From positions 3,450,001 through 3,482,000 of the forward strand of contig NC_014034.1 in the NCBI RefSeq assembly GCF_000021865.1: DNA of 32,000 nt. The letters run 5' to 3'. Every line of letters starts with the position of its first letter. Positions within the stretch are counted from its first letter, which is position 1. The DNA is from Rhodobacter capsulatus SB 1003 (GTDB taxonomy: Bacteria > Pseudomonadota > Alphaproteobacteria > Rhodobacterales > Rhodobacteraceae). Shown in pieces: positions 1,712 to 22,447 of the stretch. The notes beneath the pieces are model-generated. The model was not told where the DNA came from and made no database searches. It saw only the letters and a program-made list of their open reading frames with translations. A program made the position numbers and the translations under genes.

Positions 1712-3369
1712 TCGCGCTTTTCCGTCTGGCACGTCGTCTGTCCGAAGCCGAACGTCAGGCCTTTCTGCGCGGCCTTGCGCTGATGGTGACGGTTCTGGTC
1801 ATGGGGGTCGCGCTGCTCGGCCTCTCGGGCTGGTTCGTCACCGCCGCCGCCGCCGCGGGCATCGCCGGGGTGATCGGCTTCGATTTCTTCCGCCCCTCGG
1901 CCGGGGTGCGGTTTCTGGCGCTGGGGCGGGCGATGGCGCGCTATGGCGAACGCCTTCTGACCCATGACGCCACTTTGCGCGCACTGGCGGGCATGCGCAG
2001 CGCGGTTTACGCCGGGATCACCCGGCTGCCGCATGAGGTGCAATCGCGGCTGCGCGGCGCCGAGGCGCTCAACCGCATCACCTCGGATATCGACGCGCTC
2101 GACGGGTTGATGCTGCGCCTGGTGCTGCCGCTTTCCGCCGCCGTGGCGGGGCTGGCGGCGGGCACGCTGGCGATCTGGTTTCTGGTCACCCCCGCCGCGG
2201 CGCTGGCCGTGGCGCTGATCTATGCGCTGGGGGGAACGCTGGTTCTGGCGGTCACCGCCCGCATCGCCCTGCGCCCGGCCGCCGCCGCCGAGGCCGGGCT
2301 GCAGGGGCTGCGCGCCGCGGGGCTTGATCTGATGCGCAACCGCGCCGATCTGGCGGTGGCCGGGGCGCTCGACCGGCTGACCGGGGTGGCGCTGGACGCG
2401 GTCACCGCCGAGGAAACCGCGCGCAACCGGCTCGATGACATCGAGCGGCAATCCTCCTCGGCGCTGGCGCTGACGGTGGGCACGGCCGCGGCCGCCGCGC
2501 TTTATCTGGGCGGCAGTGCCGCCGAGGCCGGGCTGATTTCGCCCGCCCGCGCCGCGATCGGGTTTTTCGTCGCGCTGGCGCTGGCCGAAAGTCTGGGCGC
2601 GCTGCGCCGGGGTCTGGCGGAATGGGGCCGGATGCAGGGCGCCGCGGTGCGGGTTCTGGCGCTGACCGACACGCCGCCGCGCCCCGATCCGCAGGTGGTG
2701 CCGCTGCCCCTGCCGGAAAAACCGCTGCTGCATATGACCGAGCTGCGCCACCGCCGCCAGGGCGCGCAGCGCGACAGTTTCGGGCCGGTCAGCTTTGAGC
2801 TGATCCGCGGCGAGACGCTGCTGATCACCGGCCCTTCGGGCGTCGGCAAATCGACGCTTCTGGCCACGCTGGCCGGGCTGACGGCGCCGGTTTCGGGGCA
2901 GATCCTGCTTTCGGGCGTGCCGCTTGCGGATTGGTCGGAGGAGCTGTTGCGCTCCTGGCTCACCCTGGTGCCGCAACGCTCGGCGCTGATGGCGGGCACC
3001 GTGGCCGAAAACCTGTCGCTGGCCCTGCCCGAGGGCCAGCCGGTCGATGAAGCGCAGCTGTGGCAGGTGCTGGAGGCCGTCGATCTGGCCGGGCCACTGC
3101 AAGCGCGCGAGGGGTTGGCCACCCAGCTTGGCCCGCATGGATCGGGGCTTTCGGGCGGTCAGGCGAAGCGGCTTGCGCTGGCGCGGGCGCTGTTGCGCCG
3201 CCCCAAGGTGCTGCTTCTGGACGAGCCGACCGAGGGGCTGGATGCGCCGACCGCCAAGGCGACGCTGCAGGGCATCCGCAAGCTTCTGCCCGAGACCGGG
3301 ATCGTTTTCGTCAGCCACCGCAGCCCCGATGCCGATCTGGCCGACCGGGTGCTGCATCTGGCGGAATGA
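1708..3369 (+). CDS. cydC: ABC half-transporter (fused permease/ATPase), CydC-type thiol-reductant exporter subunit
   Basis: 553-aa ORF translationally coupled to the previous gene. Motifs: Walker A GPSGVGKST, signature LSGGQAKRLALARA, Walker B LLLDEPT. Confidence 0.75.
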   Translation: MIALFRLARRLSEAERQAFLRGLALMVTVLVMGVALLGLSGWFVTAAAAAGIAGVIGFDFFRPSAGVRFLALGRAMARYGERLLTHDATLRALAGMRSAVYAGITRLPHEVQSRLRGAEALNRITSDIDALDGLMLRLVLPLSAAVAGLAAGTLAIWFLVTPAAALAVALIYALGGTLVLAVTARIALRPAAAAEAGLQGLRAAGLDLMRNRADLAVAGALDRLTGVALDAVTAEETARNRLDDIERQSSSALALTVGTAAAAALYLGGSAAEAGLISPARAAIGFFVALALAESLGALRRGLAEWGRMQGAAVRVLALTDTPPRPDPQVVPLPLPEKPLLHMTELRHRRQGAQRDSFGPVSFELIRGETLLITGPSGVGKSTLLATLAGLTAPVSGQILLSGVPLADWSEELLRSWLTLVPQRSALMAGTVAENLSLALPEGQPVDEAQLWQVLEAVDLAGPLQAREGLATQLGPHGSGLSGGQAKRLALARALLRRPKVLLLDEPTEGLDAPTAKATLQGIRKLLPETGIVFVSHRSPDADLADRVLHLAE

Positions 3370-3373
3370 CCTG

Positions 3374-3395
3374 CCCCCCGCTCAGGCGCGGGGGG
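3374..3395 (+). terminator. GC-rich hairpin between convergent cydC and P450 genes (possible bidirectional terminator)
   Basis: CCCCCCGC (3374-3381), loop tcaggc, GCGGGGGG (3388-3395). It starts 5 nt after the cydC stop, overlaps the P450 stop codon (3382-3384) and is followed by TCAGTTTCAG on the plus strand. Confidence 0.4.
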
Positions 3396-4782
3396 TCAGT
3401 TTCAGCCTGATCCCGGCATCGGAGCGCACCGTCAGATGCGCGACCGGCATCGGCACCGCGCCCGGGACCGGCTCAAAGCGGAAGGCGCGCAGGAACATCG
3501 ACAGGATCAGCGGCCCTTCGGCCATGGCGAAAGCCGCGCCGGGGCAGACCCGCGGCCCTTCGGAAAACGGCACATAGGCGTCGCGCAGCCCGGCCTTGCC
3601 GTTCTCCGTCTCCCAGCGGCCGGGGTCGAAGGCGTCGGGATTGTCCCAGATCCGTTCATGCCGGTGCAGGTGCCAGGGGGAGACGATGATCTGCGCCCCC
3701 TTCTTCACGCTTCGCCCGCGGAAGGTCATCGGGCAGGCGGCCTCGCGCACGAACATCGGCACCGGCGGGTAAAGCCGCATCGCTTCCCGGAACACCGCGC
3801 GCGACAGTTTCAGCCGGTTTATGATGGAAAACACCGGCACGTCATCGCCCAGCACCTCGGTTGCCTCGGCGGCCAGTTTATCCTGCCAGTCGGGATGGGT
3901 GGCGAGCAGGTAAAGCGACCAGGCCAGCGCCGCGGCCGAGGTCTCGTGACCGGCGAGGAAAAAGATCGCCACCTGATCGACCATCTCGCCGGTCTCGAAG
4001 ACACGTCCGGTTTCGGGATCGGGCGTCGTCATGATCTTGGTCGCCAGATCATCGGGCGCGGTGCCGTTCTCGATCTCGCCCGCCCGCATCGTCGCCAGCT
4101 GCCCGATCAGCGCCCGGATCGCCCGGGCGGTGTCGCGCGTCTGTTTCGAATGGAACGCGGGGACCCATTTCGGCAGGGGCAGGATCGCCGCCAGATTGGC
4201 CACCGGATGCGCCGCCTGATGGGCGCGAAACCCCTCGAAGGCGGCTTGGGCGATCTCGTGCTCGATCGGCATCGAGAACATCGTGCGAAAGATCACATCC
4301 ATCGCCACATGGCTGGTTTCCGCCTCGATTTCCAGCGGTTGCCCGTCGGCTTTCGCCCGCAGCCTCTCGACCGCCGCGACGCCGCTGTCCCACATCGCCG
4401 GAAAGACTTCGCGCAGCCGGCCGCCCTCGAAGGCCGGGTCGATGATCCGGCGCTGATGTTCCCAAAGCGCGCCGTTGGTGATGAAGACAGAGTCGCGCAA
4501 AAGCGGCTTGAGGCCAAAGCGGATGCGCTCGGATTTCGGGAAATCATGCGGCGAGCCGCGCAGGACGCGATGCACCAGCTCGGGCTCGTTGCACAGGAAC
4601 GACCGGAAGAAGGGCGTCTTCATCTCGGCCATCCAGGCGCGGTAAAGATGCGCGGGCTGCGCCGAGAGGATGTCGCGCTGGAAGAGCCGCAGATATTCCA
4701 GAAGCGAGACCTTGCCCGCACGGGCCTGCGGTTTCGGCGGCAGAATCGCCCCTTGCGGCACGGCTGCGGTTTCATCGGTCAT
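3382..4782 (-). CDS. Cytochrome P450 (paralog 1)
   Basis: Motifs: heme-thiolate FSEGPRVCPGAAFA, I-helix LAGHETSAAAL, FDPGRW (PERF-like). Start set at ATG 4782 (MTDETAAV...) because GGAG lies 7 nt upstream and it aligns with the N-terminus of the paralog at 5741-7159. The track ORF extends to 4998, which would run across the divergent regulator promoter. Confidence 0.85.
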   Translation of the reverse strand: MTDETAAVPQGAILPPKPQARAGKVSLLEYLRLFQRDILSAQPAHLYRAWMAEMKTPFFRSFLCNEPELVHRVLRGSPHDFPKSERIRFGLKPLLRDSVFITNGALWEHQRRIIDPAFEGGRLREVFPAMWDSGVAAVERLRAKADGQPLEIEAETSHVAMDVIFRTMFSMPIEHEIAQAAFEGFRAHQAAHPVANLAAILPLPKWVPAFHSKQTRDTARAIRALIGQLATMRAGEIENGTAPDDLATKIMTTPDPETGRVFETGEMVDQVAIFFLAGHETSAAALAWSLYLLATHPDWQDKLAAEATEVLGDDVPVFSIINRLKLSRAVFREAMRLYPPVPMFVREAACPMTFRGRSVKKGAQIIVSPWHLHRHERIWDNPDAFDPGRWETENGKAGLRDAYVPFSEGPRVCPGAAFAMAEGPLILSMFLRAFRFEPVPGAVPMPVAHLTVRSDAGIRLKLTPRA

Positions 4783-4857
4783 CGGCGCACTCCGGGTCTG
4801 CATCTTGGGGGTCTGCGGGGCCATCGGTCGGGTATCCAGAGGCGTTTCGGGCTTGTC

Positions 4858-4873
4858 AGTGACGGCTATCACA
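4858..4873. promoter_or_regulatory. CRP-type operator AGTGA-N6-TCACA in the divergent P450/regulator intergenic region
   Basis: AGTGAcggctaTCACA matches 9 of 10 positions of the TGTGA-N6-TCACA consensus. It is centred about 83 bp upstream of the P450-1 ATG and about 113 bp upstream of the regulator ATG. Confidence 0.45.
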
Positions 4874-4978
4874 GGAAATTGCCCTTGTCCGCCCCGTGAT
4901 ACCTTGGGTCGCACTCGCCCGCGCGGTGAAAGCCGCGTAAACTCCGCCGACCCTCTCCGCCGCAAAGGCCGCTCGTCC

Positions 4979-5734
4979 ATGCTCGACGCCCTCGACACCC
5001 CGGCGCATCCCTGCGGGAAGTGCCTCTTTTACGAAAAGAGCCTGTGGAACCCCGTGGGCCTTGGCGGCGTGTCGGTGCTGGCCTGCGGCTTTTCCCGCCG
5101 CGACATCGCCGCGGGCGAGGTTCTGTTCGAACAGGGCAGCCGCAACAAGGGCGTGTTCTGCGTCTCCAAGGGGCTGATCGCGCTGCGCAGCCACAATCCC
5201 GACGGCTCCTCGACGCTGATGCGGCTGGCCTATCCGGGCGAGATCGTCGGCTTCCGGTCCTTCCTCAGCCATGGCGAACACCAGACCGAGGCCCGGGCGC
5301 TGATGCCCGCGCGGGTCTGCACCGTCGCGCGCGGCAGTGCCGAAAGGCTTCTGCGCAACAATCCCGCGATCATGGAGCGGCTGATGGTGCGGGCGGTGGC
5401 GGAAATCGACCGCAGCCATGCGCGGATCATCGCGGCGGCCACCACCTCGAACAAGGACCGGCTGGAACAGCTTCTGGGCTGGCTGATGGCGCGGCATGGC
5501 GCCCGCGCCGGATCCGAGATGCGGATGCAGCTGCCGATGACGCGCTCGGACCTCGCCGATCTGATCGGGGTGCAGCGGGAAACGATGTCGCGGCTGATCA
5601 AGCGGCTGGAGGAAGACGGCATCTTCCGCTTTTCCGGCCGCGAGGTCTGGATGCGGGTGCCCGGCGATCTGATGGCGCAATGCTCTGACGCCGAACGCGA
5701 AGAGGTCCGGCTGCTGGTGCAACGGCTGCGCTGA
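4979..5734 (+). CDS. Crp/Fnr-family transcriptional regulator (cNMP-binding-like beta-roll plus C-terminal HTH)
   Basis: 251 aa from ATG 4979 (MLDALDTPAHPCGKC...). Effector-domain-like segment GEVLFEQGSRNKGVFCVSKGLIAL. HTH MTRSDLADLIGVQRETMSRLIKRLEEDG, with the CRP-like R-E-x-x-x-R recognition pattern. The longer track ORF from 4670 overlaps the divergent P450. Confidence 0.85.
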   Translation: MLDALDTPAHPCGKCLFYEKSLWNPVGLGGVSVLACGFSRRDIAAGEVLFEQGSRNKGVFCVSKGLIALRSHNPDGSSTLMRLAYPGEIVGFRSFLSHGEHQTEARALMPARVCTVARGSAERLLRNNPAIMERLMVRAVAEIDRSHARIIAAATTSNKDRLEQLLGWLMARHGARAGSEMRMQLPMTRSDLADLIGVQRETMSRLIKRLEEDGIFRFSGREVWMRVPGDLMAQCSDAEREEVRLLVQRLR

Positions 5735-5747
5735 GATCGCTCAGCGC
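5728..5747. terminator. Perfect 8-bp stem/4-nt loop hairpin containing both stop codons of convergent genes
   Basis: GCGCTGAG atcg CTCAGCGC. The regulator TGA (5732-5734) and the P450-2 stop (5741-5743) both sit inside the stem. No U-tract on either side. Confidence 0.35.
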
Positions 5748-7159
5748 GGGGTCAAGGACAGCCAGATCCCGTCGCGGCCACGCACGGTCAGCTGCGCCAC
5801 CGGCATCGGCTCGCGCCCGGGCACCAGCGCGACGCGGAAATGCTTCAGCATCATGGCGAGCAACAGCGGCCCCTCGGCCATGGCAAAGCCCGCCCCGGGG
5901 CAGACCCGCGGCCCGGCCGAGAAGGGCACATAGGCCAGCCGCGAGCTTTCCCGCCCCTCGGGCGTGTCCCAGCGCGTGGGGTCGAAATCGTCCGGGTCCT
6001 TCCAGATCCGCTCGTGGCGGTGCAAATGCCAGGGGCTGACCACGACCAGCGCCCCTTTCGGCACCTTGCGGCCGCGGAAGGTTTCCTCTTGCACCGTCTC
6101 GCGCAGATACATCGGCACCGGCGGGTAAAGCCGCATCGATTCCCGAAACACCGCGCGGGCCAGTTTCAGCCGCGGCACCGAGGAGGCGTAGATCTTTTCA
6201 ACGTCGATCACCGTCTCGGCTTCCTCGGCCAGCTTGTCCTGCCATTCCGGGTAAAGCGCCATCAGGTAAAGCGACCAGGCCAGCGCGGCGGCCCCGGTTT
6301 CATGCCCGGCCAAAAGGAAGATGCCGACCTGATCGACCATCTCGCCCGGGCTGAAGCACTTGCCATCCTCGGGGTCGGGGGTGGACATGATCCGCGTCGC
6401 CAGATCGTCGGGGGCGGTGCCCGCGGCGATCTCGGCCGCGCGGGCCTCGACCAGAGCGGAAATGAAGCCGCGGATCTGTTTCGCCGTCTTCGCCGTCGCG
6501 CCAAAGCGCAGCCGCGGCAGCCAGCGCGGCAGGCTGAACAGGGTGCCGGTGTTCACCATCGGCCTTGAGGCCTGATGCGCGCGGAAGGCGTCGAAGACGG
6601 CATTCGCCGTCGCATTCTCGACCGGGATCGAAAAGAGCGTCCGGAAGATCACATCGAGCGCAATATGGCTGGCCTGGCCCTCCACATCGACGGGGCGGCC
6701 ATCGGCCAAGGGTTTCAGCCGCTCGACGCCCGAGAGCGCCGCATCCCACATCGCGGGCAGCACGTCCTTGGTGCGGCCACCGTCAAAGGCCGGGTCGATG
6801 ATCCGGCGTTGCCGTTCCCATTCCGGCCCGTTGGTGATGAAGATCGAATGGCCCAGAAGCGGCGTCAGCCCCTCGAAAAGCCGCAAGGATTTCGGGAAAT
6901 CCTCGGGGCGGCGGGTCAGGATCAGATCGACCAGATCGGGGTCGTTGCACAGGAAGGAGGTGAAGAAGGGCGAGTGAAATTCGGCCATCCAGGCGCGGAA
7001 CATCCGGGCGGGCTGCACGGCCAGGATGTCCTGCCGGATCAGGCGAAAGAAATCGCGCGGGCCGACACGCTCGGGCCGGGGGGCGGGCTTGACCGGGCGG
7101 CGATGCGCAAAGGGGCATTGCGGGGCCTCGGTGGCGCGGTCTGCGGCGGCGTCTTTCAT
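5741..7159 (-). CDS. Cytochrome P450 (paralog 2)
   Basis: 472 aa. Motifs FSAGPRVCPGAGFA, LAGHETGAAAL, FDPTRW. Roughly 60 percent identical by eye to the 3382-4782 product along the whole length. RBS GAAGGGGA lies before ATG 7159. Confidence 0.9.
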   Translation of the reverse strand: MKDAAADRATEAPQCPFAHRRPVKPAPRPERVGPRDFFRLIRQDILAVQPARMFRAWMAEFHSPFFTSFLCNDPDLVDLILTRRPEDFPKSLRLFEGLTPLLGHSIFITNGPEWERQRRIIDPAFDGGRTKDVLPAMWDAALSGVERLKPLADGRPVDVEGQASHIALDVIFRTLFSIPVENATANAVFDAFRAHQASRPMVNTGTLFSLPRWLPRLRFGATAKTAKQIRGFISALVEARAAEIAAGTAPDDLATRIMSTPDPEDGKCFSPGEMVDQVGIFLLAGHETGAAALAWSLYLMALYPEWQDKLAEEAETVIDVEKIYASSVPRLKLARAVFRESMRLYPPVPMYLRETVQEETFRGRKVPKGALVVVSPWHLHRHERIWKDPDDFDPTRWDTPEGRESSRLAYVPFSAGPRVCPGAGFAMAEGPLLLAMMLKHFRVALVPGREPMPVAQLTVRGRDGIWLSLTPR

Positions 7160-7244
7160 CGGCTATCCCCTTCACCTTCCTCGGCCTCTTGTGCCACGAA
7201 GCAGGCGCAGGTGTGGTGATGATCGTCAAGTTTGCGCTGTGATC

Positions 7245-7913
7245 TCAGTCCGCGACAGGCAGCAGCACCGGCACCTCGCGCCAGTCCTGCGGGAACATCC
7301 GCTCCAGCGCGGCGATCTTCGGCATGTCCACCTGAACGATATAGGGGTGGTCGGGGTTCAGGGTCAGGAAGTTCTGGTGATAGGCCTCGGCCGGGTAAAA
7401 GGCGGCGCCGGGGTCCAGCTGCGTGACGATCGCGGCGTCAAAGGCGCGGGCGCGGCCCAGCTGGTCGATATAGGCTTTCGCGATCCGGGCCTGATCCTCG
7501 GTCACGGGAAACAGGGCCGAGCGGTATTGCGGCCCGACATCGGGGCCCTGACGGTTCAGCTGCGTCGGATCATGCGCGACGGAAAAGAACACCTGCAACA
7601 GGTCGCCATAGCTGATCTGCTTCGGGTCGAAGACCACCTGCACGGCTTCGGCATGGCCGGTCTCGCCGCCCGAGACCTGATCGTAATGGGCTGTCGCCGC
7701 CGTGCCGCCCGCATAGCCCGAGGTGGCGCTGATCACGCCGTTCAGGTGCTGAAACACCCCCTGCACGCCCCAGAAGCAGCCGCCCGCGAAGATCGCGGTT
7801 TCCGGGCCGGTCAGCGCCGCCGCATCCACGGCGGGCGGCGGGATCACCCGGAATTCCTCGGCAAAGGCGGGGGTGGCAAGGGCAAGCGCAAGGGCAAGAA
7901 CAAGGCGGCGCAT
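7245..7913 (-). CDS. msrA: Peptide-methionine (S)-S-oxide reductase MsrA, exported form
   Basis: Active-site motif GGCFWGVQG. N-terminal signal peptide MRRLVLALALALATPAFA. RBS AAGGA sits 11 nt after the dipZ stop. Confidence 0.9.
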   Translation of the reverse strand: MRRLVLALALALATPAFAEEFRVIPPPAVDAAALTGPETAIFAGGCFWGVQGVFQHLNGVISATSGYAGGTAATAHYDQVSGGETGHAEAVQVVFDPKQISYGDLLQVFFSVAHDPTQLNRQGPDVGPQYRSALFPVTEDQARIAKAYIDQLGRARAFDAAIVTQLDPGAAFYPAEAYHQNFLTLNPDHPYIVQVDMPKIAALERMFPQDWREVPVLLPVAD

Positions 7914-7924
7914 CGGGCGATCCT

Positions 7925-9763
7925 TTATCCGAAGGTGAAGGCGAAGGCCTGAACGCCGGGGGCGTCGAAGCGGATTTCAAAGAGGTGGTCGGTGACGGGC
8001 CCCTTGGCGCGGTAAAGCTGATAGAGCCGGTCCTCGGTCACGATGCCCCGGCCCGCGGCATCGACGTCAAGCCCGGCATCGGCGCCGGGGGGCTGGCCGT
8101 CGATCGTCACGGTAAAGGGCACCGGCGCGGCCCCGGGCGCCAGCACCAGATGCAGGTCGCGGGCGTGAAAGCGCATCGTCACGCTGCCGGAGGGCGCAGT
8201 CAGCTGCGCGGCCTCGACCCCCACGGTCCAGTCGCCCGCCAGCGCCCATTCGTTCAGCCGCAGATCAGGCGCGGTGTAGCGATGCGGCTGATCGGCGATC
8301 AACCCCTCGGCATTCAGGTTCCCGCTGGCGCGCTCATGGCCCAGATAAGTCTCGGGCGAGAAGACCGCGCGCATATCGGCGGGGGCGGAAACGCCCGCAG
8401 CTTGCACCTGCGCCGTCGTGTCGGGACTGGCCCCGGCCTCGGCCAGAAGCGTGCGGATCACCTGTTCGGACTCCGCATAGCCGCCCTCGCCGAAATGGTG
8501 GTGGCGGATCTGCCCCTTGGCATCAATGAAGTAATGCGCGGGCCAGTAGCGGTTCGAAAACGCCCGCCACAGCGCGTAGTCGTTATCCAGCGCCACCGGA
8601 TAGGTGATGCCCAGATCGCGGACCGCCTTTTCGACATTGGCCGGGTTCTTTTCAAAAGCGAATTCGGGCGCATGCACGCCGATCACCACCAGCCCCTTGT
8701 CGCGATAGGCGGCGTCCCAGGCCTGCACATGCGGCAGCGCGCGCAGGCAGTTGATGCAGGAATAGGTCCAGAAGTCGATCAGCACGACCTTGCCGCGCAA
8801 CTGTGCGGCGGTCAGCGGCGGCGAATTGAGCCACTGCACCGCGCCGGTCAGATCGGGCATCTGGCCTTCGACCGGCAGGGCCTCGGGCTGGCCCTTGGCC
8901 ACCATCGCCGGGCCCGCCATCATCGCGGGGCCTCCGGTCATCGCGGGGCCTCCGGTCATCGCGGGGCCACCCGTCATCGCGGGGCCACCCGTCATCGCCG
9001 GGGCGGTCATCGCCGGACCCGTCATGGCCGGGGCGGCCTGCATCACCGTGCTGCCCTCGGGGCCGAAGCGGGTGAGCAGCGCCGCTTCCAGCCGGTTCGT
9101 CGAGGCAGTCGAAAGCCGCGTCAAAAGCCCGGTATCAAGCCCCAAAGCAATCGCCGCGACGCCCGCCAGGACCAGCGCGCCCAGACCACGCCGCAGCCCC
9201 TCGCCCAGACCCAGGCTGCGCTTCATCAGCGCAAAGACCCGCCCCCCGGCCAGAAGCGCCACCGCAAGCGCCGTCGCCGCCCCCAAGGCATAGGCGAACA
9301 AAAGCCCCGTCGTCGCGACGCTTGCCCCGTTCAGCGCCGCCCCGGTCAGGATCAGCCCGAGGATCGGCCCGGCGCAGGGCGCCCACAAGAGACCCGTGGC
9401 CACGCCCAAAACGGCCGAACCGAAGACCCCCTCGCCCCGCCCCGCGGCGCGGTTGCCCAGCGCGACCAAGGGTCGGGTCAGCCGTTCGGACAGCGCGGGG
9501 AACAAAAGCATCAGCCCGAAGACAGCCAGAAGGGTCAGCGCAAGCCCCCGCCCCCAGCCATTCGCGGCCACCGCCCAGCCACCGCCCACGGCCGCCAGGC
9601 TTGCCACCGCGGCAAAGGCCAGCGCCATCCCGGCCAGCATCGGCAAGCCATTCGTCAAAAAGGGTTTTCCGGCGCGGGCAAAGACGAAGGGCAAAACCGG
9701 CAGGATGCAGGGGCTGAGGATCGTCAGCACCCCGCCCAGCCAGGCCAGAAGGGCAAGGGTCAT
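7925..9763 (-). CDS. dipZ: DipZ-type thiol:disulfide electron transporter: CcdA/DsbD membrane domain fused to a TlpA-like thioredoxin and a DipZ C-terminal domain
   Basis: 612 aa. Membrane-domain Cys motifs LSPCILP and WAPCAGP, a Met-rich linker, the thioredoxin motif WTYSCINC, then about 180 aa of beta-rich C-terminal domain. Separated by 3 nt from msrB and 11 nt from msrA. Confidence 0.8.
   Translation of the reverse strand: MTLALLAWLGGVLTILSPCILPVLPFVFARAGKPFLTNGLPMLAGMALAFAAVASLAAVGGGWAVAANGWGRGLALTLLAVFGLMLLFPALSERLTRPLVALGNRAAGRGEGVFGSAVLGVATGLLWAPCAGPILGLILTGAALNGASVATTGLLFAYALGAATALAVALLAGGRVFALMKRSLGLGEGLRRGLGALVLAGVAAIALGLDTGLLTRLSTASTNRLEAALLTRFGPEGSTVMQAAPAMTGPAMTAPAMTGGPAMTGGPAMTGGPAMTGGPAMMAGPAMVAKGQPEALPVEGQMPDLTGAVQWLNSPPLTAAQLRGKVVLIDFWTYSCINCLRALPHVQAWDAAYRDKGLVVIGVHAPEFAFEKNPANVEKAVRDLGITYPVALDNDYALWRAFSNRYWPAHYFIDAKGQIRHHHFGEGGYAESEQVIRTLLAEAGASPDTTAQVQAAGVSAPADMRAVFSPETYLGHERASGNLNAEGLIADQPHRYTAPDLRLNEWALAGDWTVGVEAAQLTAPSGSVTMRFHARDLHLVLAPGAAPVPFTVTIDGQPPGADAGLDVDAAGRGIVTEDRLYQLYRAKGPVTDHLFEIRFDAPGVQAFAFTFG
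8921..8992 (-). repeat. In-frame 18-bp tandem repeat (4 units) encoding (MTGGPA)n, core of a Met-rich tract spanning 8903-9043
   Basis: Plus-strand units are catcgcggggcctccggt x2 (8921-8956) and catcgcggggccacccgt x2 (8957-8992). They are flanked by degenerate 15- and 18-bp units. Every cat is a Met codon of dipZ. Confidence 0.9.
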
Positions 9764-9766
9764 CGT

Positions 9767-10237
9767 TCAGGTCTCCGGGGTGAAGGTCATCGCGACCCCG
9801 TTCATGCAATAGCGCAGCCCGGTCGGCGGCGGGCCGTCTTCGAACACATGGCCCAGATGACCGCCGCAGCGGGCGCAATGCACCTCGGTCCGGGTCATCA
9901 TCAGCGCGCCATCAATGCGGGTGCCCACGACCTCGGGGCGGATCGGCTGGTAGAAACTCGGCCAGCCGGTGCCGCTGTCGAATTTCGTCTCGGACGCAAA
10001 CAGCGCCTGCCCGCAGCCCGCACAGGCAAAGGTGCCCTTGCGGTGTTCCTGCTCCAGGGGGCTCGTGTAGGGATATTCCGTGCCCTCCTTGCGCAGCACC
10101 GAATAGGCCTCGGGCGACAGAAGCTTGCGCCATTCCTCGTCGCTGTGCACCACCTCGAAGGTTTCGGCCGCGGCCTTGTGGGGGGCCAGACCGACGGCGG
10201 CCAGCCCCACCGACAGCAAAAGATGTCTCCGGTTCAT
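9767..10237 (-). CDS. msrB: Peptide-methionine (R)-S-oxide reductase MsrB, exported form
   Basis: Zn CxxC pairs CAGCGQ and CARCGG, plus GHLGHVFEDG and the catalytic RYCMN. Start set at ATG 10237 (MNRRHLLLSVGLAAVGLAP..., an RR-containing signal) preceded by GGAGGAG. The track ORF begins at 10294. Confidence 0.9.
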   Translation of the reverse strand: MNRRHLLLSVGLAAVGLAPHKAAAETFEVVHSDEEWRKLLSPEAYSVLRKEGTEYPYTSPLEQEHRKGTFACAGCGQALFASETKFDSGTGWPSFYQPIRPEVVGTRIDGALMMTRTEVHCARCGGHLGHVFEDGPPPTGLRYCMNGVAMTFTPET

Positions 10238-10324
10238 GCGCTCCTCCGCAGCTTGATCCGAAGCATCAGTTAGGGCGCTAACGGCCGCTGTCACGCGGCC
10301 GCGGGCAACGCTTTCGTGACTGGG

Positions 10325-11290
10325 TTAAAAGATCGCGTGATCGCCGCGGTCATCGGCAATCTCGCCGCGCAGCATCGCGGCGACGTAATCCTCGAACCGG
10401 TCGGTGCCGAATTCCGGCGTCGCATCAGCATCATAGCAACCCTTGACCGGGTTCCAGAGCAGCATCGATTCCGAGGCATAATAGCGCCCGATCCGTGCCA
10501 ATTCGGCCTTGCCCGCCAGTTTCGGGGAAAATTTCCCAAGAACGCTCAGCACGCCGACAATCGCATCCATCAGCTTCGGCGTGACATGGCGGATCTTCAC
10601 CGGCTGGCCGGTCAGCCGCTCCAGCATCGCCGCCTGATCCAAGGGCGTGATCGCAGGCCCCGGGCCGCCGATGGGCAGCACCTTCCGCACTTTCTCGGGA
10701 TCGCTCAGACAGGAGGTGAGGAACCGCCCCAGATCGGCATCGGAAATCGGCTTGCAGGCGGTGATCCGGCCATCGCCGAAAACCAGAAACGGTTTGCCCT
10801 TCTGCACCCGCGGGATCTGCCCCGAAAGCGACTTGAAGAACGCCGTCGGCCGCACGATCGACCATTCCAAGGGCGAGCCGCGCAGCTGCGCTTCAAAGGC
10901 CAGTTTCGCCTTCTGGAATTCCAGATAGGGTTTTTGCACGCAGATCGCAGAAAGCAGCACGAATTTGCGCACCCGCGCCTCCATCGCCGCTTCCAGCGCA
11001 TGGGCATGGGCGCGGTCGTCGATCGCCCAGGCATCGGCGGGCAGCCCGGTGCGCGAAGCAAGGCAGGAGACGATCGCGGCGCAGGGATGATCCTTCAGCA
11101 CCCGCGCCACGGTGTCGGGATAGCTCACGTCGCCCTCGATCAGCGTGCAGCCGGGCAGCTTCGCCGGATCGGTCCCCGGCCGCACCAGCGCCCAGACGCC
11201 ATGCCCCTCGGCCAGCAAAGCCGCGGCCGTCGCCCGGCCGATGGTGCCGGTGCCGCCCAGCAAAAGCACACGGAATTTCAGATCTTTCAT
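10325..11290 (-). CDS. NAD(P)-binding Rossmann-fold reductase (extended SDR/NmrA-like), resembling BciA-type divinyl chlorophyllide 8-vinyl reductase
   Basis: 321 aa from ATG 11290 (MKDLKFRVLLLGGTGTIGR = GxxGxxG). From memory, the C-terminal ...ESMLLWNPVKGCYDADATPEFGTDRFEDYVAAMLRGEI...AIF resembles the DVR/BciA C-termini. The family call is tentative. Confidence 0.5.
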   Translation of the reverse strand: MKDLKFRVLLLGGTGTIGRATAAALLAEGHGVWALVRPGTDPAKLPGCTLIEGDVSYPDTVARVLKDHPCAAIVSCLASRTGLPADAWAIDDRAHAHALEAAMEARVRKFVLLSAICVQKPYLEFQKAKLAFEAQLRGSPLEWSIVRPTAFFKSLSGQIPRVQKGKPFLVFGDGRITACKPISDADLGRFLTSCLSDPEKVRKVLPIGGPGPAITPLDQAAMLERLTGQPVKIRHVTPKLMDAIVGVLSVLGKFSPKLAGKAELARIGRYYASESMLLWNPVKGCYDADATPEFGTDRFEDYVAAMLRGEIADDRGDHAIF

Positions 11291-11362
11291 CGCAAGGCCC
11301 CCTTTTCGCACCCGCAGCTTAGCAGGATGCACGGGCGCGGCCAGACGCAGTTTGGCGCAGGG

Positions 11363-11403
11363 CCAAAGGAAGGGGGGCAGCCGACCCCACCGGGCCGCCC
11401 CCC
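11363..11403 (-). terminator. Candidate rho-independent terminator of mop
   Basis: GGGGGGC (11372-11378) pairs with GCCCCCC (11397-11403), 17 nt after the mop stop. It is followed on the minus strand by TTCCTTTGG. The loop is large and GC-rich, so the call is tentative. Confidence 0.4.
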
Positions 11404-11419
11404 AACCCCGGTCGTTCGA

Positions 11420-11626
11420 TCAGTTCTTGCCGACGATGACGTCAGAGGCCTTGATGATCGCGCAGGCCTCGTCGCCGACCTTCAGCGCCAGATCGGCGGC
11501 GGCTTCGTTGGTGATCGAGGCGGTGACCACGGTCCCGCCGATGTCGATCTTGACATGGGTGGTGACATTGCCGGTCTCGACGGCGGTGACCTTGCCCGCC
11601 AGAATATTGCGTGCGCTGAGTTTCAT
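11420..11626 (-). CDS. mop: Molbindin (single TOBE/Mop domain molybdate-binding protein)
   Basis: 68 aa from ATG 11626: MKLSARNILAGKVTAVETGNVTTHVKIDIGG...IIKASDVIVGKN. RBS AAGGA. Confidence 0.85.
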   Translation of the reverse strand: MKLSARNILAGKVTAVETGNVTTHVKIDIGGTVVTASITNEAAADLALKVGDEACAIIKASDVIVGKN

Positions 11627-11711
11627 CGGGGTGTCCTTTCCCGGAACGATTGAGTCGATTTGTGCCAATTGCTTGCGGCAAGGCCAGTGTTAACCTTTGC
11701 TACCCCTTTGA

Positions 11712-11736
11712 CAATATGAGAAAAATCCACATATCG
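11712..11736. promoter_or_regulatory. Mo-box-like AT-rich dyad (candidate MopA/MopB, ModE-family, site) upstream of mop
   Basis: In mop orientation it reads CGATATG-N11-CATATTG, with arms complementary at 6 of 7 positions. It is the only strongly AT-rich dyad in the 160-bp interval, lying 86-110 bp upstream of the mop ATG. Confidence 0.5.
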
Positions 11737-11785
11737 CAGCCATGCGCGGGCTGCATGCCTCCTCTTCCGGCGGCGGGACGCGGGT

Positions 11786-12619
11786 TCAACCCTCGGGCAC
11801 GGTCAAAAGGTCGGTCAGTGCCGAGAGCGGCAGATCCAGACGGCGGATCTGCATCTCCTCCAGGAACTTCTCTTCCATTTTCGTCAGCGGACCGGGGATC
11901 AGCGCGACATGTCCAGCGCCCGAACGCTTGGCGATCTGACGCGCGTAAATCCGCAACAGCTGATCGTCGAAGCGGCAGCCCAGGAACAGGAACGGCCGCC
12001 CGGTGCGACGCTCTCGCACCTCTTCCGGAATCGGGGTCTGGATGTCGATCTCGGTCAGCACCTCGACGTAATCGGCGTCCGACAGAAGGAAGGAAGACCC
12101 CATCCGCACCAGACCGTTGGGCTTGTAGATCAGCGATTTCCAGCCCGGATCGGCGGTCGCGACGGGTTCGCCGAAACTGTCGAAGGCGGCGGTGAAGGCC
12201 TCGGAATGCGTCCCCGCCCGGCTGATCCCCTGCACCAGCCCCCAATCGCCGTCACCCGGGCCGAAGGCGCGCAGGATGCCCTCGTCATACCAGGTGTCAA
12301 CGACCATCGGCACCCGCATCGAGGCCAGCCAGTCATGCACCGGATTGGGCCGGTCGGGGCGGCCGACGAAAGCCTTGCGCACCAACGCGTCCAAGGTCGC
12401 GCGGAACTTCCGGCTTTCGATATATTGCGCCACCGCCCACAGATTGCCCGCGGCCCGGCGCGGCACCCGCACTTCGGCCTCCAGCCTGCGGCACAGCTCG
12501 GCCGTCGTGCCGGGCGCCTGCCCGCCCGACAAAGCCGAGACTTCGGGGCCCAGATAGGGGATGCGACGGCCCGCCCCCACCTCGGCCATGACGGTTTCCA
12601 GAAGCGCGATGTCGGTCAT
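11786..12619 (-). CDS. SIR2_2-like (DHS-like NAD-binding fold) protein with substituted catalytic residues; last cistron of the nifB operon
   Basis: 277 aa from ATG 12619, 2 nt after the nifT stop. Ordered motifs: IPYLGPEVS, NPVHDWL, VVDTWYDE, LIYKPNGLV, PFLFLGCRFDDQLLR. The track ORF start at 12736 would overlap nifT. Confidence 0.6.
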   Translation of the reverse strand: MTDIALLETVMAEVGAGRRIPYLGPEVSALSGGQAPGTTAELCRRLEAEVRVPRRAAGNLWAVAQYIESRKFRATLDALVRKAFVGRPDRPNPVHDWLASMRVPMVVDTWYDEGILRAFGPGDGDWGLVQGISRAGTHSEAFTAAFDSFGEPVATADPGWKSLIYKPNGLVRMGSSFLLSDADYVEVLTEIDIQTPIPEEVRERRTGRPFLFLGCRFDDQLLRIYARQIAKRSGAGHVALIPGPLTKMEEKFLEEMQIRRLDLPLSALTDLLTVPEG

Positions 12620-12621
12620 GC

Positions 12622-12834
12622 TCAGTCCTCGTCGGAAATCTTGCGCGCCTCGACCGTCACCGGCAGCTGCGGCGGGGTGTCGAACTCGGGCATGGCAAAG
12701 ACCCAGCCATTGGCCAGCTTCGCCCAGCCGCCCCAAAGCCCGGGTTTTTCCTGCGCGACCACCATTTCCTCAAGGTCCTTCTTCGGCACATAGGCCTCGA
12801 TCCCCTTGGCGGTTTCACGGATCATCACTTTCAT
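12622..12834 (-). CDS. nifT: NifT/FixU
   Basis: 70 aa, MKVMIRETAKGIEAYVPKKDLEEMVV..., typical NifT. ATGA overlap with the nifZ stop (12831-12834). Confidence 0.85.
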   Translation of the reverse strand: MKVMIRETAKGIEAYVPKKDLEEMVVAQEKPGLWGGWAKLANGWVFAMPEFDTPPQLPVTVEARKISDED

Positions 12835-13184
12835 CGGGAGAGGTCCTTTGCAGTTTGCGCAAGGCTTGCGCGGGTCACGATATGGGATTGCAGCGCCTGT
12901 TCGGCCTCGCGCGCGGCAAGGGTCCCGGCGGGCTTGATTTCCTTTTCGCGCATGCCGACGATCGAGCCGCGCTCGATGAAGTCGATGGCGTAGATGTAGA
13001 ATTGCGACAGGAACACGCCGATGTCGCGGACATAGCCGACGTCGCCCTTTTTCACCACGATGTCGCCGATCTCGAACCCGGCCATGGTGCCGTCGTTCTT
13101 CACCTGCTTGCGGGCGATCACCTTGTCGCCCGGCCGGTAGACGGGGGCGCGGTAGACCTCGATTTCACGGTCGTCGGTCGACAT
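12831..13184 (-). CDS. nifZ: NifZ
   Basis: 117 aa with NifZ-like PGDKVIARKQVKNDGTMAGFEIGDIVVKKGDVGYVRDIGVFLSQFYIYAIDF. The start lies 3 nt after the preceding stop. Confidence 0.85.
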   Translation of the reverse strand: MSTDDREIEVYRAPVYRPGDKVIARKQVKNDGTMAGFEIGDIVVKKGDVGYVRDIGVFLSQFYIYAIDFIERGSIVGMREKEIKPAGTLAAREAEQALQSHIVTRASLAQTAKDLSR

Positions 13185-13187
13185 GGG

Positions 13188-13925
13188 TCACTCCTTCAGA
13201 TGGGCAAGCCGCTGGATCGCGGTCTCGCGGATGATGTCTTCGGGGTCAGAGACAAGGCGGCGCAATTCCTCGCGCCCGCCTTCCTCGGCAACGGTGTGGC
13301 GGACGCGGAGATCGTCATCCGCCACGAAAAGCCCGGGCCGCCGCCGCGCCGCCACCCGCCGCACCAGCGGCTCGGGATCGGTGCGGAAGCGGTCAAGAAA
13401 AGCGGGGTCGATGCGGCGGGCGACCTCGGCGCGGACCTCGGGATCGGGGTCGGCACAAAGCATCGGCAGCATCCCCGTCTCGGCGCGGCGGGCAACGATC
13501 AGCCGGACATGGCCGTCCTTGTCCTGCAGCATCGGCAGCAGCCCGCCCGGCGGCAACCGATGCGCGACGGCGATCCGCACGGCGCGGTCCGGGTCGCGGA
13601 TCAGCCGTTCCGCATGCGCGGCGGGCAGGCGCAGCACCGCCATGCCCCGCACGGCCGGGTCCTCGTCGGCCAGAAGCCGCGGCAGCCGGAACACCGAGGC
13701 CGTCCGCGCCGCCTGCACCCGGGTCTCGAAATAGGGATGACCCAGGTTTTCATCCGCCAGTTCGGGGTTGAGCAGAAAGAACCGCTCGATCCGCTTGGCG
13801 TAGCGATCATTCAGGCAGGACCAGCCCAGCCCGCAATGCCCGCTCTCCAGCAGGTCCTGAAACCGGCAGGCGCCGCATTCCAGCGCCTGACCCGTCCAAT
13901 CAAGGGGTTCGGGGCCTTCGGGCAT
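13188..13925 (-). CDS. LRV-type protein: N-terminal 4-Cys Fe-S domain plus leucine-rich-variant (HEAT-like) repeats
   Basis: 245 aa. N-terminal segment CGACRFQDLLESGHCGLGWSC supplies 4 Cys. About 24-residue repeats of the form D(P/D)xxxVRxxVAxRL follow (DPAVRGMAVLRL, DPDRAVRIAVAHRL, DGHVRLIVARR, DPEVRAEVARRI, EPLVRRVAARR, DLRVRHTVAEE). The start lies 7 nt after the nifB stop. Confidence 0.8.
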   Translation of the reverse strand: MPEGPEPLDWTGQALECGACRFQDLLESGHCGLGWSCLNDRYAKRIERFFLLNPELADENLGHPYFETRVQAARTASVFRLPRLLADEDPAVRGMAVLRLPAAHAERLIRDPDRAVRIAVAHRLPPGGLLPMLQDKDGHVRLIVARRAETGMLPMLCADPDPEVRAEVARRIDPAFLDRFRTDPEPLVRRVAARRRPGLFVADDDLRVRHTVAEEGGREELRRLVSDPEDIIRETAIQRLAHLKE

Positions 13926-13932
13926 CGGATCC

Positions 13933-15426
13933 TCAGGCGGTAATGGCTTGTTTCTGGGTCATTCTTTCGCGGTAAAGCGCAAGGATGGCGGGTTCGATGT
14001 AGTCGTGGGCCCAGCTGTCGCGGGCGGTGATGCCGGCGCTTGCCAGGCCCTCGCGCGGGCAGTCGCCGATCTTGGCCACCAGAACCGTGTCGATCCCGTC
14101 AAGCGCCGCGATGACGCGGTCAAGACGGTCTTCCGCGCCGCCGCCGTCGACGCAATAGTTGTCGCAGCGGCGGTGAAAGGCGAAGCGGACGCCCGTGGCA
14201 TCGACCTCGAAGACCTGGAATTCCGTCGCATGGCCGAAATGCTGGTTGATCCGGCCGCCGCCCTGGGTCGTCACCGCGACCAGAAGTTTCGGCGAGCTGG
14301 CCGCGCAGGCCGCCTCGGTCGCGGCCTGGGCGGCCTCGGCGGCGGCGCGGCGGTCTTCGCGCTCGGCGCCCACCCAGTCGCGATAGGTTTCGCGCGCGGC
14401 GGGATCATAGACCGGCGCCTCGGGCACGAGGTCCAGGGTGAATTCCTGACCCCGATCCTCGCCCAGAAGCCCCACCGCATCGGCGCGGCACTGGCGGCAG
14501 TGCTTCATCAGATTGGCCCCGCCCGCGCAGGCCTCCTGCACCGCCAGAAGCTCGGCCGCCGTCGGGCCGCGCTGCCCGGTCAGGCCGAAATGCGTGCCAT
14601 GTTCGGGCGCCGAAATCAGCGGCATGATGTTGTGCAAAAACGCGCCGCGGCGTTTGACCTCGCGGTTCACCTCCAGGAGATGCGCGTCGTTGATCCCGGG
14701 GATCAGCACCGAATTGACCTTGACCAGGATGCCGCGCGCGACGAGACCATCGAGCGCCGCCATCTGCCGTTCATGCAGGATGCGGCTCGCCTCGACGCCA
14801 TAGATCCGTTTGCGGTTGTAAAAGATCCAGGGGTAGATCTTTGCCCCCACCTCGGGGTCGATCATGTTGATGGTGATCGTCACGTGATCGACATTCATCT
14901 CGACCAGTTCATCGAGGTGATCGGGCAGGGCGAGCCCGTTCGAGCTCAGGCACAGCTTGATGTCGGGGATCTGCGCCGTCACCAGCCGGAAGGTTTCCTT
15001 CGTCTTCAGCCAGTCATAGGCGCTGTCGCCCGGCCCGGCGATGCCCAGAACCGAGAGCTGCGGCACCTCATTCGCCACCGCAATCACCTTGCGCGCGGCC
15101 TCCTCGGGCGTCAGCCGTTCCGACACGACACCGGGGCGGCTTTCGTTCGAACAATCGTATTTGCGGTTGCAGTAATTGCACTGGATGTTGCAGGCGGGCG
15201 CCACCGACACATGCATGCGGGCGAAATAATGATGCGCCTCTTCGGAATAGCAGGGGTGATCCTTGACCTTGGCCCAGGTCGCCGGGTCCATGTCTTCGGG
15301 TTTTTCCTTGCTACCGCAGCCGGTTGCCGATCCGGTCGCGGAACAGCCGCCCGCGGCCAGCGCGGCCGAGAGGCTCTCCTTCGAGCCGATCGCCAGGGTG
15401 CCAAGGGCCACGACATTGTCCGACAT
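13933..15426 (-). CDS. nifB: NifB, radical-SAM FeMo-cofactor (NifB-co) synthase with a C-terminal NifX-like domain
   Basis: 497 aa from ATG 15426 (MSDNVVALG...), RBS GGAGAG. Radical-SAM motif CNIQCNYCNRKY. C-terminal NifX-like segment LLVAVTTQGGGRINQHFGHATEFQVFEV. The track ORF start at 15588 would run through the promoter and the nifA terminator. Confidence 0.95.
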   Translation of the reverse strand: MSDNVVALGTLAIGSKESLSAALAAGGCSATGSATGCGSKEKPEDMDPATWAKVKDHPCYSEEAHHYFARMHVSVAPACNIQCNYCNRKYDCSNESRPGVVSERLTPEEAARKVIAVANEVPQLSVLGIAGPGDSAYDWLKTKETFRLVTAQIPDIKLCLSSNGLALPDHLDELVEMNVDHVTITINMIDPEVGAKIYPWIFYNRKRIYGVEASRILHERQMAALDGLVARGILVKVNSVLIPGINDAHLLEVNREVKRRGAFLHNIMPLISAPEHGTHFGLTGQRGPTAAELLAVQEACAGGANLMKHCRQCRADAVGLLGEDRGQEFTLDLVPEAPVYDPAARETYRDWVGAEREDRRAAAEAAQAATEAACAASSPKLLVAVTTQGGGRINQHFGHATEFQVFEVDATGVRFAFHRRCDNYCVDGGGAEDRLDRVIAALDGIDTVLVAKIGDCPREGLASAGITARDSWAHDYIEPAILALYRERMTQKQAITA

Positions 15427-15467
15427 GCTGCTCTCCGTTCTGGTCCCGCTTGGGTCATCAGGGATGC

Positions 15468-15483
15468 AGCAAGAACCGTGCCA
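15468..15483 (-). promoter_or_regulatory. sigma54 (-24/-12) promoter of nifB
   Basis: The minus strand reads TGGCAC GGTTC TTGCT. The predicted transcription start is about 30 nt upstream of the nifB ATG. Confidence 0.85.
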
Positions 15484-15521
15484 GGCCCGCGGCGGGGCGA
15501 TTGGCACAAAACCTGCGCTTT

Positions 15522-15537
15522 TGTCGGGAATGCGACA
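15522..15537. promoter_or_regulatory. NifA-type upstream activator sequence TGT-N10-ACA for nifB
   Basis: TGTCGGGAATGCGACA is a perfect TGT-N10-ACA. It lies about 40-55 bp upstream of the -24 element. Confidence 0.65.
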
Positions 15538-15543
15538 GGCGCG

Positions 15544-15571
15544 CAAACAAAAACCCCGGCCGAAGCCGGGG
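15544..15571 (-). terminator. Rho-independent terminator of nifA
   Basis: The minus strand reads CCCCGGC TTCG GCCGGGG followed by TTTTTGTTTG. It begins 24 nt after the nifA stop. Confidence 0.7.
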
Positions 15572-15594
15572 TCCGTCGCGTCTTCCAAGCGCCC

Positions 15595-17334: not shown

Positions 17335-17533
17335 GCAGTCACCCCCTCACAGGAAGGAATTTCCGCGGCGGATGACCCGGGGCAAGGGACTCGGGCGGCA
17401 GCCGCTGCAGTCGGGACTTCTGCACTGACCATAGGGCATGGGCGAAAAAAGGCACGTCTTCCGACGCGTCCGGCAGGCAAGTTCGGTTCATTTTTGCAAG
17501 GTCACCGGGTCGATTGCGCAATTATGCGGCGAA

Positions 17534-17550
17534 CCGGCCCCGGGGGCCGG
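17534..17550 (-). terminator. GC hairpin 24 nt downstream of nifW (weak terminator candidate)
   Basis: CCGGCCCC/GGGGGCCGG inverted repeat. The minus strand has TTTT before the hairpin, not after it, so it is not a canonical intrinsic terminator. Confidence 0.3.
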
Positions 17551-17573
17551 AAAATCTGGCAGATTGCAGGCGG

Positions 17574-17912: not shown

Positions 17913-17941
17913 CTGGGTCTCCTTCATTCACGTTCGGGCAA

Positions 17942-19087: not shown

Positions 19088-19098
19088 CCTCTTTCCCC

Positions 19099-20259: not shown

Positions 20260-20261
20260 GG

Positions 20262-20669: not shown

Positions 20670-20679
20670 CGCTTTCCCC

Positions 20680-21000: not shown

Positions 21001-21035
21001 GACGCTCTCCCCTGTGATGCGTTCATCAGGGATGC

Positions 21036-21051
21036 AGCAAGAAGCGTGCCA
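21036..21051 (-). promoter_or_regulatory. sigma54 promoter of the iscA-nifUSVW operon
   Basis: The minus strand reads TGGCAC GCTTC TTGCT. The predicted start is about 25 nt upstream of ATG 21000. Confidence 0.85.
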
Positions 21052-22437: not shown

Positions 22438-22447
22438 TTCGTCCTTG

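Follow-up and report, generated by a model that had tools for sequence, protein, structure and literature searches.

The DipZ-type gene in the 32,000-nucleotide stretch of Rhodobacter capsulatus SB 1003 analyzed here (contig NC_014034.1, positions 3,450,001 to 3,482,000; called the window, in whose own numbering all coordinates are given unless a locus is named) carries an in-frame, methionine-rich tandem repeat between its membrane and thioredoxin domains. This tract appears to be the local form of a Met-rich, disordered periplasmic tether, found in a subfamily of DipZ proteins that is apparently dedicated to the periplasmic methionine sulfoxide reductases MsrA and MsrB. The Met-rich linker is a conserved trait of this DipZ subclade and not a local quirk. 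By analogy with known sacrificial methionine systems, we hold the chances to be even that the tether is a built-in, Msr-recycled element cycling between Met and methionine sulfoxide [Met(O)], and it was probably selected for oxidation and repair rather than being filler.

Codons 9043 to 8903 of the minus strand encode MQAAPAMTGPAMTAPAMTGGPAMTGGPAMTGGPAMTGGPAMMAGPAM, which contains 10 Met in 47 residues (21% Met), a count made in an earlier, sequence-only reading of this DNA and confirmed here. The tract has no charged residues, no His and no Cys, and its successive Met-Met spacings are 6, 5, 5, 6, 6, 6, 6, 1, and 5. Elsewhere in the window, whichever of the six frames is read, 47 consecutive residues never hold more than seven Met; for a Met frequency of 2.5%, the binomial probability of the tract is 2e-7. 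In 80 related loci, the 619 neighboring open reading frames (ORFs) reach at most 6 Met per 40 residues, whereas DipZ reaches 12.

At the DNA level, Tandem Repeats Finder reports an array of period 18 with 5.6 copies and 90% matches at 8903-9004, and a degenerate 15-bp array at 8991-9036. Read in an ATG-first register, the repeat core consists of two copies of ATGACGGGTGGCCCCGCG (8995-8978 and 8977-8960) followed by two copies of ATGACCGGAGGCCCCGCG (8959-8942 and 8941-8924). These A and B units differ at only two sites, both synonymous third positions. The four 18-bp units in two identical pairs previously placed at 8921-8992 are the same array, displaced by a register shift of 3 nt. As an AABB pattern cannot be produced by duplicating an AB block, it points to separate single-unit duplications or to gene conversion. 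The earlier suggestion of recent slippage or duplication fits units that differ only synonymously, but "recent" describes only the young array of the window, the Met-rich linker as such being old and widely distributed.

Two further features of the repeat DNA were noted. The B units (8924-8959, minus strand) read ACC GGA GGC CCC GCG ATG, placing a perfect GGAGG Shine-Dalgarno core 7 nt before an in-frame ATG. This core is probably a by-product of the Gly-Gly codons; judging from the sequence, it could also allow internal initiation of a truncated thioredoxin (Trx) fragment without a signal peptide. An antisense ORF of 167 residues on the plus strand (8790-9293, containing IAGPPVIAGPPV) mirrors the repeat and was rejected as a gene, the G+C content at third codon positions (GC3) of the minus-strand frame being 0.84. 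It is most likely a by-product of high G+C content combined with the repeat.

The linker was delimited in the alignment by the end of the ...NRLEAALL helix on one side and the LPVEG motif on the other, in a set of 201 sequences made up of the window sequence, 120 homologues from the database and 80 loci from genomes (57-92% identity). The set spans Alpha-, Beta-, and Gammaproteobacteria and one Acidobacterium (a Terriglobus genome), and includes Rhizobiales, Rhodobacterales, Acetobacteraceae, Burkholderiales, Pseudomonas, and Steroidobacteraceae. Pooled over these sequences, the linker is 14.5% Met, compared with 1.2% in the rest of the protein, an approximately twelve-fold enrichment. Its median length is 58 residues and it is rich in Ala, Gly, Pro, Ser, and Thr, with 13% DEKR when pooled. 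Residues one mutation away from ATG are rare (Ile 0.4%, Leu 1.3%, Val 3.2%). His, at 0.9%, is below the protein background and occurs in 17 of the 201 linkers; Cys occurs in none. An MM pair is present in 183 linkers, and the last such pair lies a median of 12 residues (interquartile range 12-15) ahead of LPVEG, within the loose consensus G-[GN]-P-A-M-M-x-A-K-P. The pooled Met-Met spacings (approximately 1,400) are bimodal, with 39% at 1 and 47% at 5-7; MxM accounts for 7% and MxxM for three instances (0.2%).

The wider family presents a different picture. When 1.84 billion cluster representatives (50% identity) were searched exhaustively with HMMER, 2,425 proteins reached E<1e-30. Of the top 150, the 83 that are full length (35-60% identity) have a median linker of 25 residues with 1.8% Met, and MM is found in one of the 83, a protein (P0138) that proved to be an MsrA fusion and is described below.

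Unit number varies among close relatives. Protein lengths in the Rhodobacter group are 584, 597, 601, 602, 603, and 612 residues, and the differences map to the linker. Counted in the same way throughout, there are three PAM-type units in the database R. capsulatus and R. viridis proteins, four to eight in other relatives and eight in the window. Two proteins identical at 590 of 597 positions (P0004 and P0393) have a single indel, which is one 5-residue linker unit. Length differences confined to the linker, together with this one-unit indel, indicate that the array is actively expanding and contracting, in line with the prediction from the window alone that repeat number may vary between strains. 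Since relatives keep a Met-rich linker despite the change in length, the linker is probably selected and not filler; unit number would shift quickly by slippage while selection keeps the Met content. Internally duplicated Met-rich DipZ linkers were also observed in two loci from alphaproteobacterial metagenome-assembled genomes (L002, 4001-5857; L078, 3989-5989).

Met richness is associated with nearby msr genes. Counting linkage only within +/-4 kb of dipZ, msrB and/or msrA is present in 64 of the 80 loci and in the window, and both are present in 44 of the 80. The linker contains on average 5.6 Met (Met fraction 11.8%) where both genes are found (44 loci and the window), 5.9 (11.6%) with msrB only (n=16), 2.2 (4.4%) with msrA only (n=5), and 2.4 (6.9%) with neither (n=16). 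Over these 81 loci, linker Met differs between loci with any msr gene and those with none (Mann-Whitney p=1e-4). The association persists under generalized least squares with Brownian covariance on a rough neighbor-joining tree of conserved columns (t=3.2), and MM occurs in 57 of 65 linked and 7 of 16 unlinked loci (Fisher p=5e-4). The sequence-only reading had named msr-linked orthologues devoid of Met enrichment as an observation that would speak against it; linked loci instead carry more Met (5.6-5.9 vs 2.4), with exceptions that are considered below. The data hint at a closer tie of Met richness to msrB than to msrA, the msrA-only group being five loci with three from one genus. These five (L005, L006, and L011 of Paraburkholderia; L072 and L073), in which msrA but not msrB lies within 4 kb, have long Ala/Asn/Ser-rich linkers with 0-3 Met, typically including a single GAMMR.

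The one MM-containing protein of the wider family, P0138 (L085, 806-2581), begins with a signal peptide and continues with MsrA, linker, Trx, and Thioredoxin_10 segments; an msrB whose product is exported comes after it (L085, ~2596-3162). Fusions with this MsrA-linker-Trx-Thioredoxin_10 order form a family of at least 118 clusters (69-92% identity), each followed by an exported msrB, whose sources are mostly soil metagenomes, Burkholderiales, and Steroidobacteraceae. Between MsrA and Trx the family keeps a near-invariant GGAMMMAAAEKPAEGGAMMSAQGAS (GGAMMM...GGAMMSAQGAS), and its linker is ~10% Met. As a Rosetta-stone fusion, it indicates that the periplasmic module of DipZ works with MsrA. Retention of the Met motif in the fusions further indicates that the motif travels with the Trx-Msr partnership and not with the membrane domain.

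The architecture of the 612-residue protein places the tract precisely. The closest named homologue is an R. capsulatus "cytochrome c biogenesis protein DipZ" (88% identity). Pfam assigns Redoxin/AhpC-TSA to residues 312-426, above cutoff, and Thioredoxin_10 (PF17991) to residues 469-612 (E=1.5e-44, 152 bits); the DsbD_TM match to residues 3-176 is weak, at 16.8 bits and under the cutoff of 27.1. Searches of PDB sequences match residues 298-560 to the Mycobacterium tuberculosis DipZ periplasmic fragment (PDB entry 2HYX, E=7e-67) and residues 3-220 to Thermus CcdA (5VKV, E=9.5e-10). Weaker matches to the Trx domain are Streptococcus pneumoniae Etrx (4HQZ, 2YP6) and the thioredoxin domain of Neisseria PilB (2JZR), both of which donate electrons to extracytoplasmic Msr enzymes. 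Cys19, Cys130, Cys336, and Cys339 are invariant in 64 homologues. The protein has the features of the DipZ-type class, namely a CcdA/DsbD-beta-like domain of six transmembrane (TM) helices with two conserved Cys, and a CxxC thioredoxin fold followed by Thioredoxin_10. The AlphaFold model has a mean predicted local distance difference test (pLDDT) score of 80.7 and is confident except for residues 234-292 (pLDDT ~31-46), which separate the last membrane-proximal helix (213-233) from the thioredoxin fold beginning near residue 298. The linker formed by these residues is predicted to be intrinsically disordered. Pfam, the PDB search and AlphaFold together bear out the original placement of the tract between a CcdA-like membrane domain and a periplasmic thioredoxin domain. 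By inspection, six TM helices with positive charge in loops 1-2, 3-4, and 5-6 would put the linker and C-terminal domains in the periplasm. Coordinates of the principal features are collected in Table I.

Table I. Coordinates of the dipZ repeat, the DipZ domains and the flanking msr genes in the window
Feature	Coordinates	Strand	Basis
DipZ-type gene, 612 aa: CcdA-like 6-TM electron transporter, Met-rich linker, thioredoxin domain, Thioredoxin_10	7925..9763	-	Pfam, PDB search, AlphaFold
CcdA-like membrane domain, aa 1-233, invariant Cys19 and Cys130	9065..9763	-	5VKV match, 64-sequence alignment, AlphaFold helical to aa 233
Predicted disordered periplasmic linker, aa 234-292	8888..9064	-	Sole segment with pLDDT <50
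Met-rich tract, aa 241-287	8903..9043	-	PAM(T/M)G(G) repeats
Four exact 18-bp units, AABB pattern	8924..8995	-	Tandem Repeats Finder and unit reading
Thioredoxin-fold domain, aa ~298-445; CxxC C336-C339 at 8747..8758	8429..8872	-	Pfam, 2HYX alignment
Thioredoxin_10 C-terminal beta-sandwich domain, aa 469-612, zero Cys	7928..8359	-	PF17991
msrB, exported peptide-methionine (R)-S-oxide reductase, longest ORF	9767..10294	-	Pfam SelR E=3.5e-48, TIGR00357 173 bits
msrA, exported peptide-methionine (S)-S-oxide reductase	7245..7913	-	Pfam PMSR E=1.7e-56, TIGR00401 170 bits

The position of dipZ between msrB and msrA, also recognized from the sequence alone, is upheld by the Pfam SelR and PMSR matches. 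The three genes lie on one strand, with gaps of 3 nt on the msrB side and 11 nt on the msrA side. The probable start of msrB is an ATG near 10237, giving MNRRHLLLSVGLAAVGLAPHKAAA with what by inspection is a twin-arginine-type signal; homologous genes in relatives are called at 156-157 residues. The signal peptide of msrA, likewise by inspection, is MRRLVLALALALATPAFA. As in extracytoplasmic CcdA/DsbD-Trx-Msr pathways, exported MsrA and MsrB are encoded together with a membrane reductant.

Pathways of this kind are known as CcdA-Trx-MsrAB in S. pneumoniae, Haemophilus influenzae, and Fusobacterium nucleatum, and as DsbD-PilB in Neisseria (PMC13488963; PMC3914529). In these systems (CcdA-Etrx-MsrAB2 in the case of S. 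pneumoniae), membrane CcdA or DsbD passes electrons to a Trx-fold protein and on to exported MsrA/B, and the same series is predicted here. Unlike those systems, CcdA and Trx are fused here in a DipZ-type polypeptide with an extra Thioredoxin_10, and MsrA and MsrB are made as separate proteins. Where CcdA and Trx join, DipZ moreover has a Met-rich repeat, and no such junction is reported for those systems in the searchable literature. M. tuberculosis DipZ (Rv2874; 2HYX, 5CYY) shares the domain architecture of the window protein, and its periplasmic module is homologous. Distant DipZ representatives have short, Met-poor linkers, unlike the window DipZ. M. tuberculosis dipZ is not known to be adjacent to msr genes. 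No msr neighbors were found at the three Met-poor distant representatives with readable context, two others (P0194 and P0150) being on contigs that are short or lacking DNA. The lumenal region of plant SOQ1 (7DJJ) also matches residues 302-501 (E=3.4e-26). A redox-active Cys pair and Msr activity have been reported for the C-terminal domain of SOQ1 (preprint, bioRxiv 10.1101/2024.11.01.621559). A redox-active Thioredoxin_10 domain of this kind was rejected for the window DipZ, whose residues 469-612 contain no Cys.

For the tether itself, the relevant precedent is MrpX, a periplasmic, unfolded protein with 20% Met that is oxidized by HOCl and regenerated by the MsrP homologue YedY1 (PMC4436054); BcrX of Brucella is similar (PMC8315932). 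Like these proteins, the tether is ~20% Met, is predicted to be periplasmic and disordered, and is encoded beside methionine sulfoxide reductase genes, and the proposed logic of sacrificial Met oxidation with enzymatic regeneration is the same. The differences are nevertheless substantial. MrpX is a small, free, secreted peptide that is 44% charged, strongly inducible and paired with the molybdoenzyme MsrP, whereas the tether is an uncharged, Pro/Ala/Gly/Thr-rich internal linker of a 612-residue membrane protein, paired with thiol-based MsrA and MsrB. The tether has no MXKDX motif, its repeat being PAM(T/M)GG, and shows no sequence homology to MrpX. The MrpX type is paired in the genome with msrPQ (yedYZ) and an extracytoplasmic function (ECF) sigma factor (SigF/NrsF); the window gene has msrA and msrB as neighbors, and MsrP/MsrQ or ECF sigma factor clusters are absent from the recurring neighbors in the 80 loci.

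It is interesting to consider how such an element would operate. From homology, cytoplasmic thioredoxin would pass electrons to the CcdA-like domain (Cys19/Cys130), and this in turn to the thioredoxin domain on the tether (C336xxC339); synteny and the Rosetta-stone fusion suggest that the latter would re-reduce exported MsrA and MsrB. Periplasmic oxidants (HOCl, chloramines, H2O2) would turn exposed tether Met into R- and S-sulfoxides, which MsrB and MsrA would reduce, and these enzymes would be recharged by the thioredoxin domain to which the tether leads. The whole would constitute a self-contained catalytic Met/Met(O) cycle at the membrane. Approximately ten Met per membrane protein is a small capacity, so a local benefit is likelier than bulk scavenging: the tether could shield the electron-entry thiols, or oxidized Met could bait MsrA/B to their reductant. 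The earlier proposal of an oxidant sink or sensor recycled by Msr gains support of a comparative kind, in that Met richness is confined to a mostly msr-linked subclade, recurs in the MsrA-Trx fusions, and has a precedent in MrpX-MsrP.

Several observations weigh against an Msr-recycled tether. Next to inducible soluble sinks of the MrpX type, its Met capacity is low. Three msrB-dipZ-msrA loci (L071, L058, and L045) have only 0-1 linker Met, and conversely L002 (8 Met) and L078 (15 Met) have no msr gene within 4 kb, the sole distance over which linkage was scored. Met columns are conserved no better than other columns (71.3% each) in 13 independent pairs of close relatives whose linkers align without gaps. 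On this evidence, any selection would favor a certain Met content or number and the presence of the terminal MM rather than fixed sites; this site-level test of 13 close, equal-length pairs gave no sign of fixed ligand positions. Sampling also plays a part. One peptide pattern of the genome scan was MTGGPAMM, and word- or score-based ranking may favor Met-rich homologues, so Met-rich linkers are over-represented among the best hits, and the statement that all 120 best hits are Met-rich overstates their prevalence.

Three other roles for the tether have to be set against Met(O) cycling. The one that lies nearest to it, and which we consider unlikely, is a docking element or redox switch, in which an oxidized AMM pseudo-substrate holds MsrA/MsrB at the membrane reductant, or a change in polarity alters the reach of the tether and gates electron flow. 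Oxidation of tether Met would then recruit MsrA/MsrB or change the reach, and couple electron export to the level of periplasmic Met oxidation, an outcome we regard as doubtful. The last MM is positionally conserved, ~12 residues ahead of the thioredoxin domain; Met-poor, msr-linked linkers, as in Paraburkholderia, usually retain one MMR/MMM motif; and the motif persists in the MsrA-Trx fusions, where a bulk sink adds little. The low Met capacity, which speaks against bulk scavenging, also agrees with docking or switching. The single-chain AlphaFold model, however, shows disorder only, and some msr-linked DipZ proteins (L071, L058, L045) have no MM at all. Docking or switching also overlaps with the favored Met(O) cycling, and the two are inseparable in silico.

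The remaining alternatives are Cu(I) binding and a neutral spacer. In the former, Met thioethers would bind periplasmic Cu(I), protecting the thiol pathway or sensing copper. Met-only Cu(I) sites and MMM clusters occur in known copper proteins, and the tether resembles the Cu(I) motifs of CueO/PcoA/CopA, CusF, and Ctr1 in its high Met density in an exposed extracytoplasmic segment. ScsB and other DsbD-family systems are tied to copper tolerance (PMC3322552), and Met-rich copper proteins are Msr clients, CusF being repaired by MsrP (PMC9302797). The sensor kinase adjacent to the cluster in 33 of the 80 loci aligns to a heavy-metal sensor subfamily, albeit well under the cutoff (133 vs 293 bits). 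Unlike the motifs of those copper proteins, however, the tether essentially lacks the MxxM/MxM register, the dominant spacings being 1 and 5-7, and His and Asp are scarce. Cys is absent from the linkers, the window tract has no acidic residues, and no copper-homeostasis genes recur among the neighbor clusters of the 80 loci. Met richness tracks msr linkage instead. The Cu(I) reading offered from sequence alone is consequently the weaker of the two that were put forward, and copper binding is the less likely primary role on these features; we consider it quite improbable. A neutral flexible spacer, with Met present only because the slipping unit happened to hold ATG, is very improbable. It would account for a young array whose units are identical or synonymously different, for the drift of unit number among near-identical proteins and for Met sites that are no better conserved than their neighbors, and some orthologues presumably function with Met-free linkers. 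It does not sit well with a twelve-fold Met enrichment across lineages whose linkers are unalignable and whose genomes are ~60-67% G+C, where ATG is disfavored, nor with the absence of the enrichment from the wider family. The correlation with msr linkage survives phylogenetic correction, the MM motif is positionally conserved, and no neighboring ORF matches the Met density.

The components and the sacrificial-Met principle are already known. What is new is that a conserved Met-rich tether forms part of the Msr electron donor itself and of MsrA-Trx fusions. Neither a Met-rich linker in DipZ/CcdA-Trx proteins nor an msrB-dipZ-msrA module was found described in the searchable full-text literature. 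Most of what is known of periplasmic Met repair comes from MsrPQ and, in a few pathogens, from MsrAB fusions. The locus represents a widespread, unstudied msrB-dipZ-msrA module of environmental and plant-associated Proteobacteria, annotated "cytochrome c biogenesis protein DipZ". If the tether is indeed recycled by Msr, the sacrificial-Met principle would no longer be limited to a free peptide with a molybdoenzyme but would also cover a tethered sequence that belongs to the thiol-based MsrA/B pathway, and an MM/PAMM-rich linker would serve as a sequence signature for Msr-dedicated DipZ proteins. Given natural variation in unit number and the status of R. capsulatus as a genetic model, the tether would then also offer a tractable test of exposed Met as catalytic antioxidants. 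Should the tether act as a switch, an electron-transfer protein would contain a linker that mimics a substrate, a feature kept across Proteobacteria and employed again in MsrA-Trx fusions.

Beyond the msr genes, the surroundings of the module differ between groups. In beta- and gammaproteobacterial loci, an OmpR-type two-component system lies just upstream of msrB-dipZ-msrA on the opposite strand (33 of 80 loci), as in L065, where the kinase occupies 1046-2572 and the regulator 2569-3384; the window has no such system. The alignment of the kinase to the heavy-metal sensor kinase subfamily is full length, though far under the cutoff as given above. Matches of the system to the CopS/CusS copper sensors and to HprS were all under the family cutoffs.

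A promoter scan of 5600-12000 in the window, whose G+C content is 67%, gave no promoter-like site, and terminator-like sites were at background level. Elsewhere in the window, beside a gene for a Crp/Fnr-type regulator, a 538-residue ORF with high GC3 is present at 3382-4998 (minus strand); its counterparts in L081 and L082 are 564 residues long and have no Pfam hit on record. The cluster around dipZ has the order NmrA-like gene, msrB, dipZ, msrA, and P450, adjoins nif genes, and is syntenic with R. capsulatus CP198946 and with one related metagenomic contig. Throughout the Rhodobacter group, the NmrA-like NAD-binding gene (10325-11332 in the window), 30 nt upstream of msrB, and the cytochrome P450 gene (5741-7159), 85 nt downstream of msrA, enclose the cluster. 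The nif region lies against the msr cluster in the window (11400-26700) and, by synteny with CP198946, includes nifA, nifB, nifZ, nifT, a SIR2_2-domain gene, and a TOBE-domain gene.

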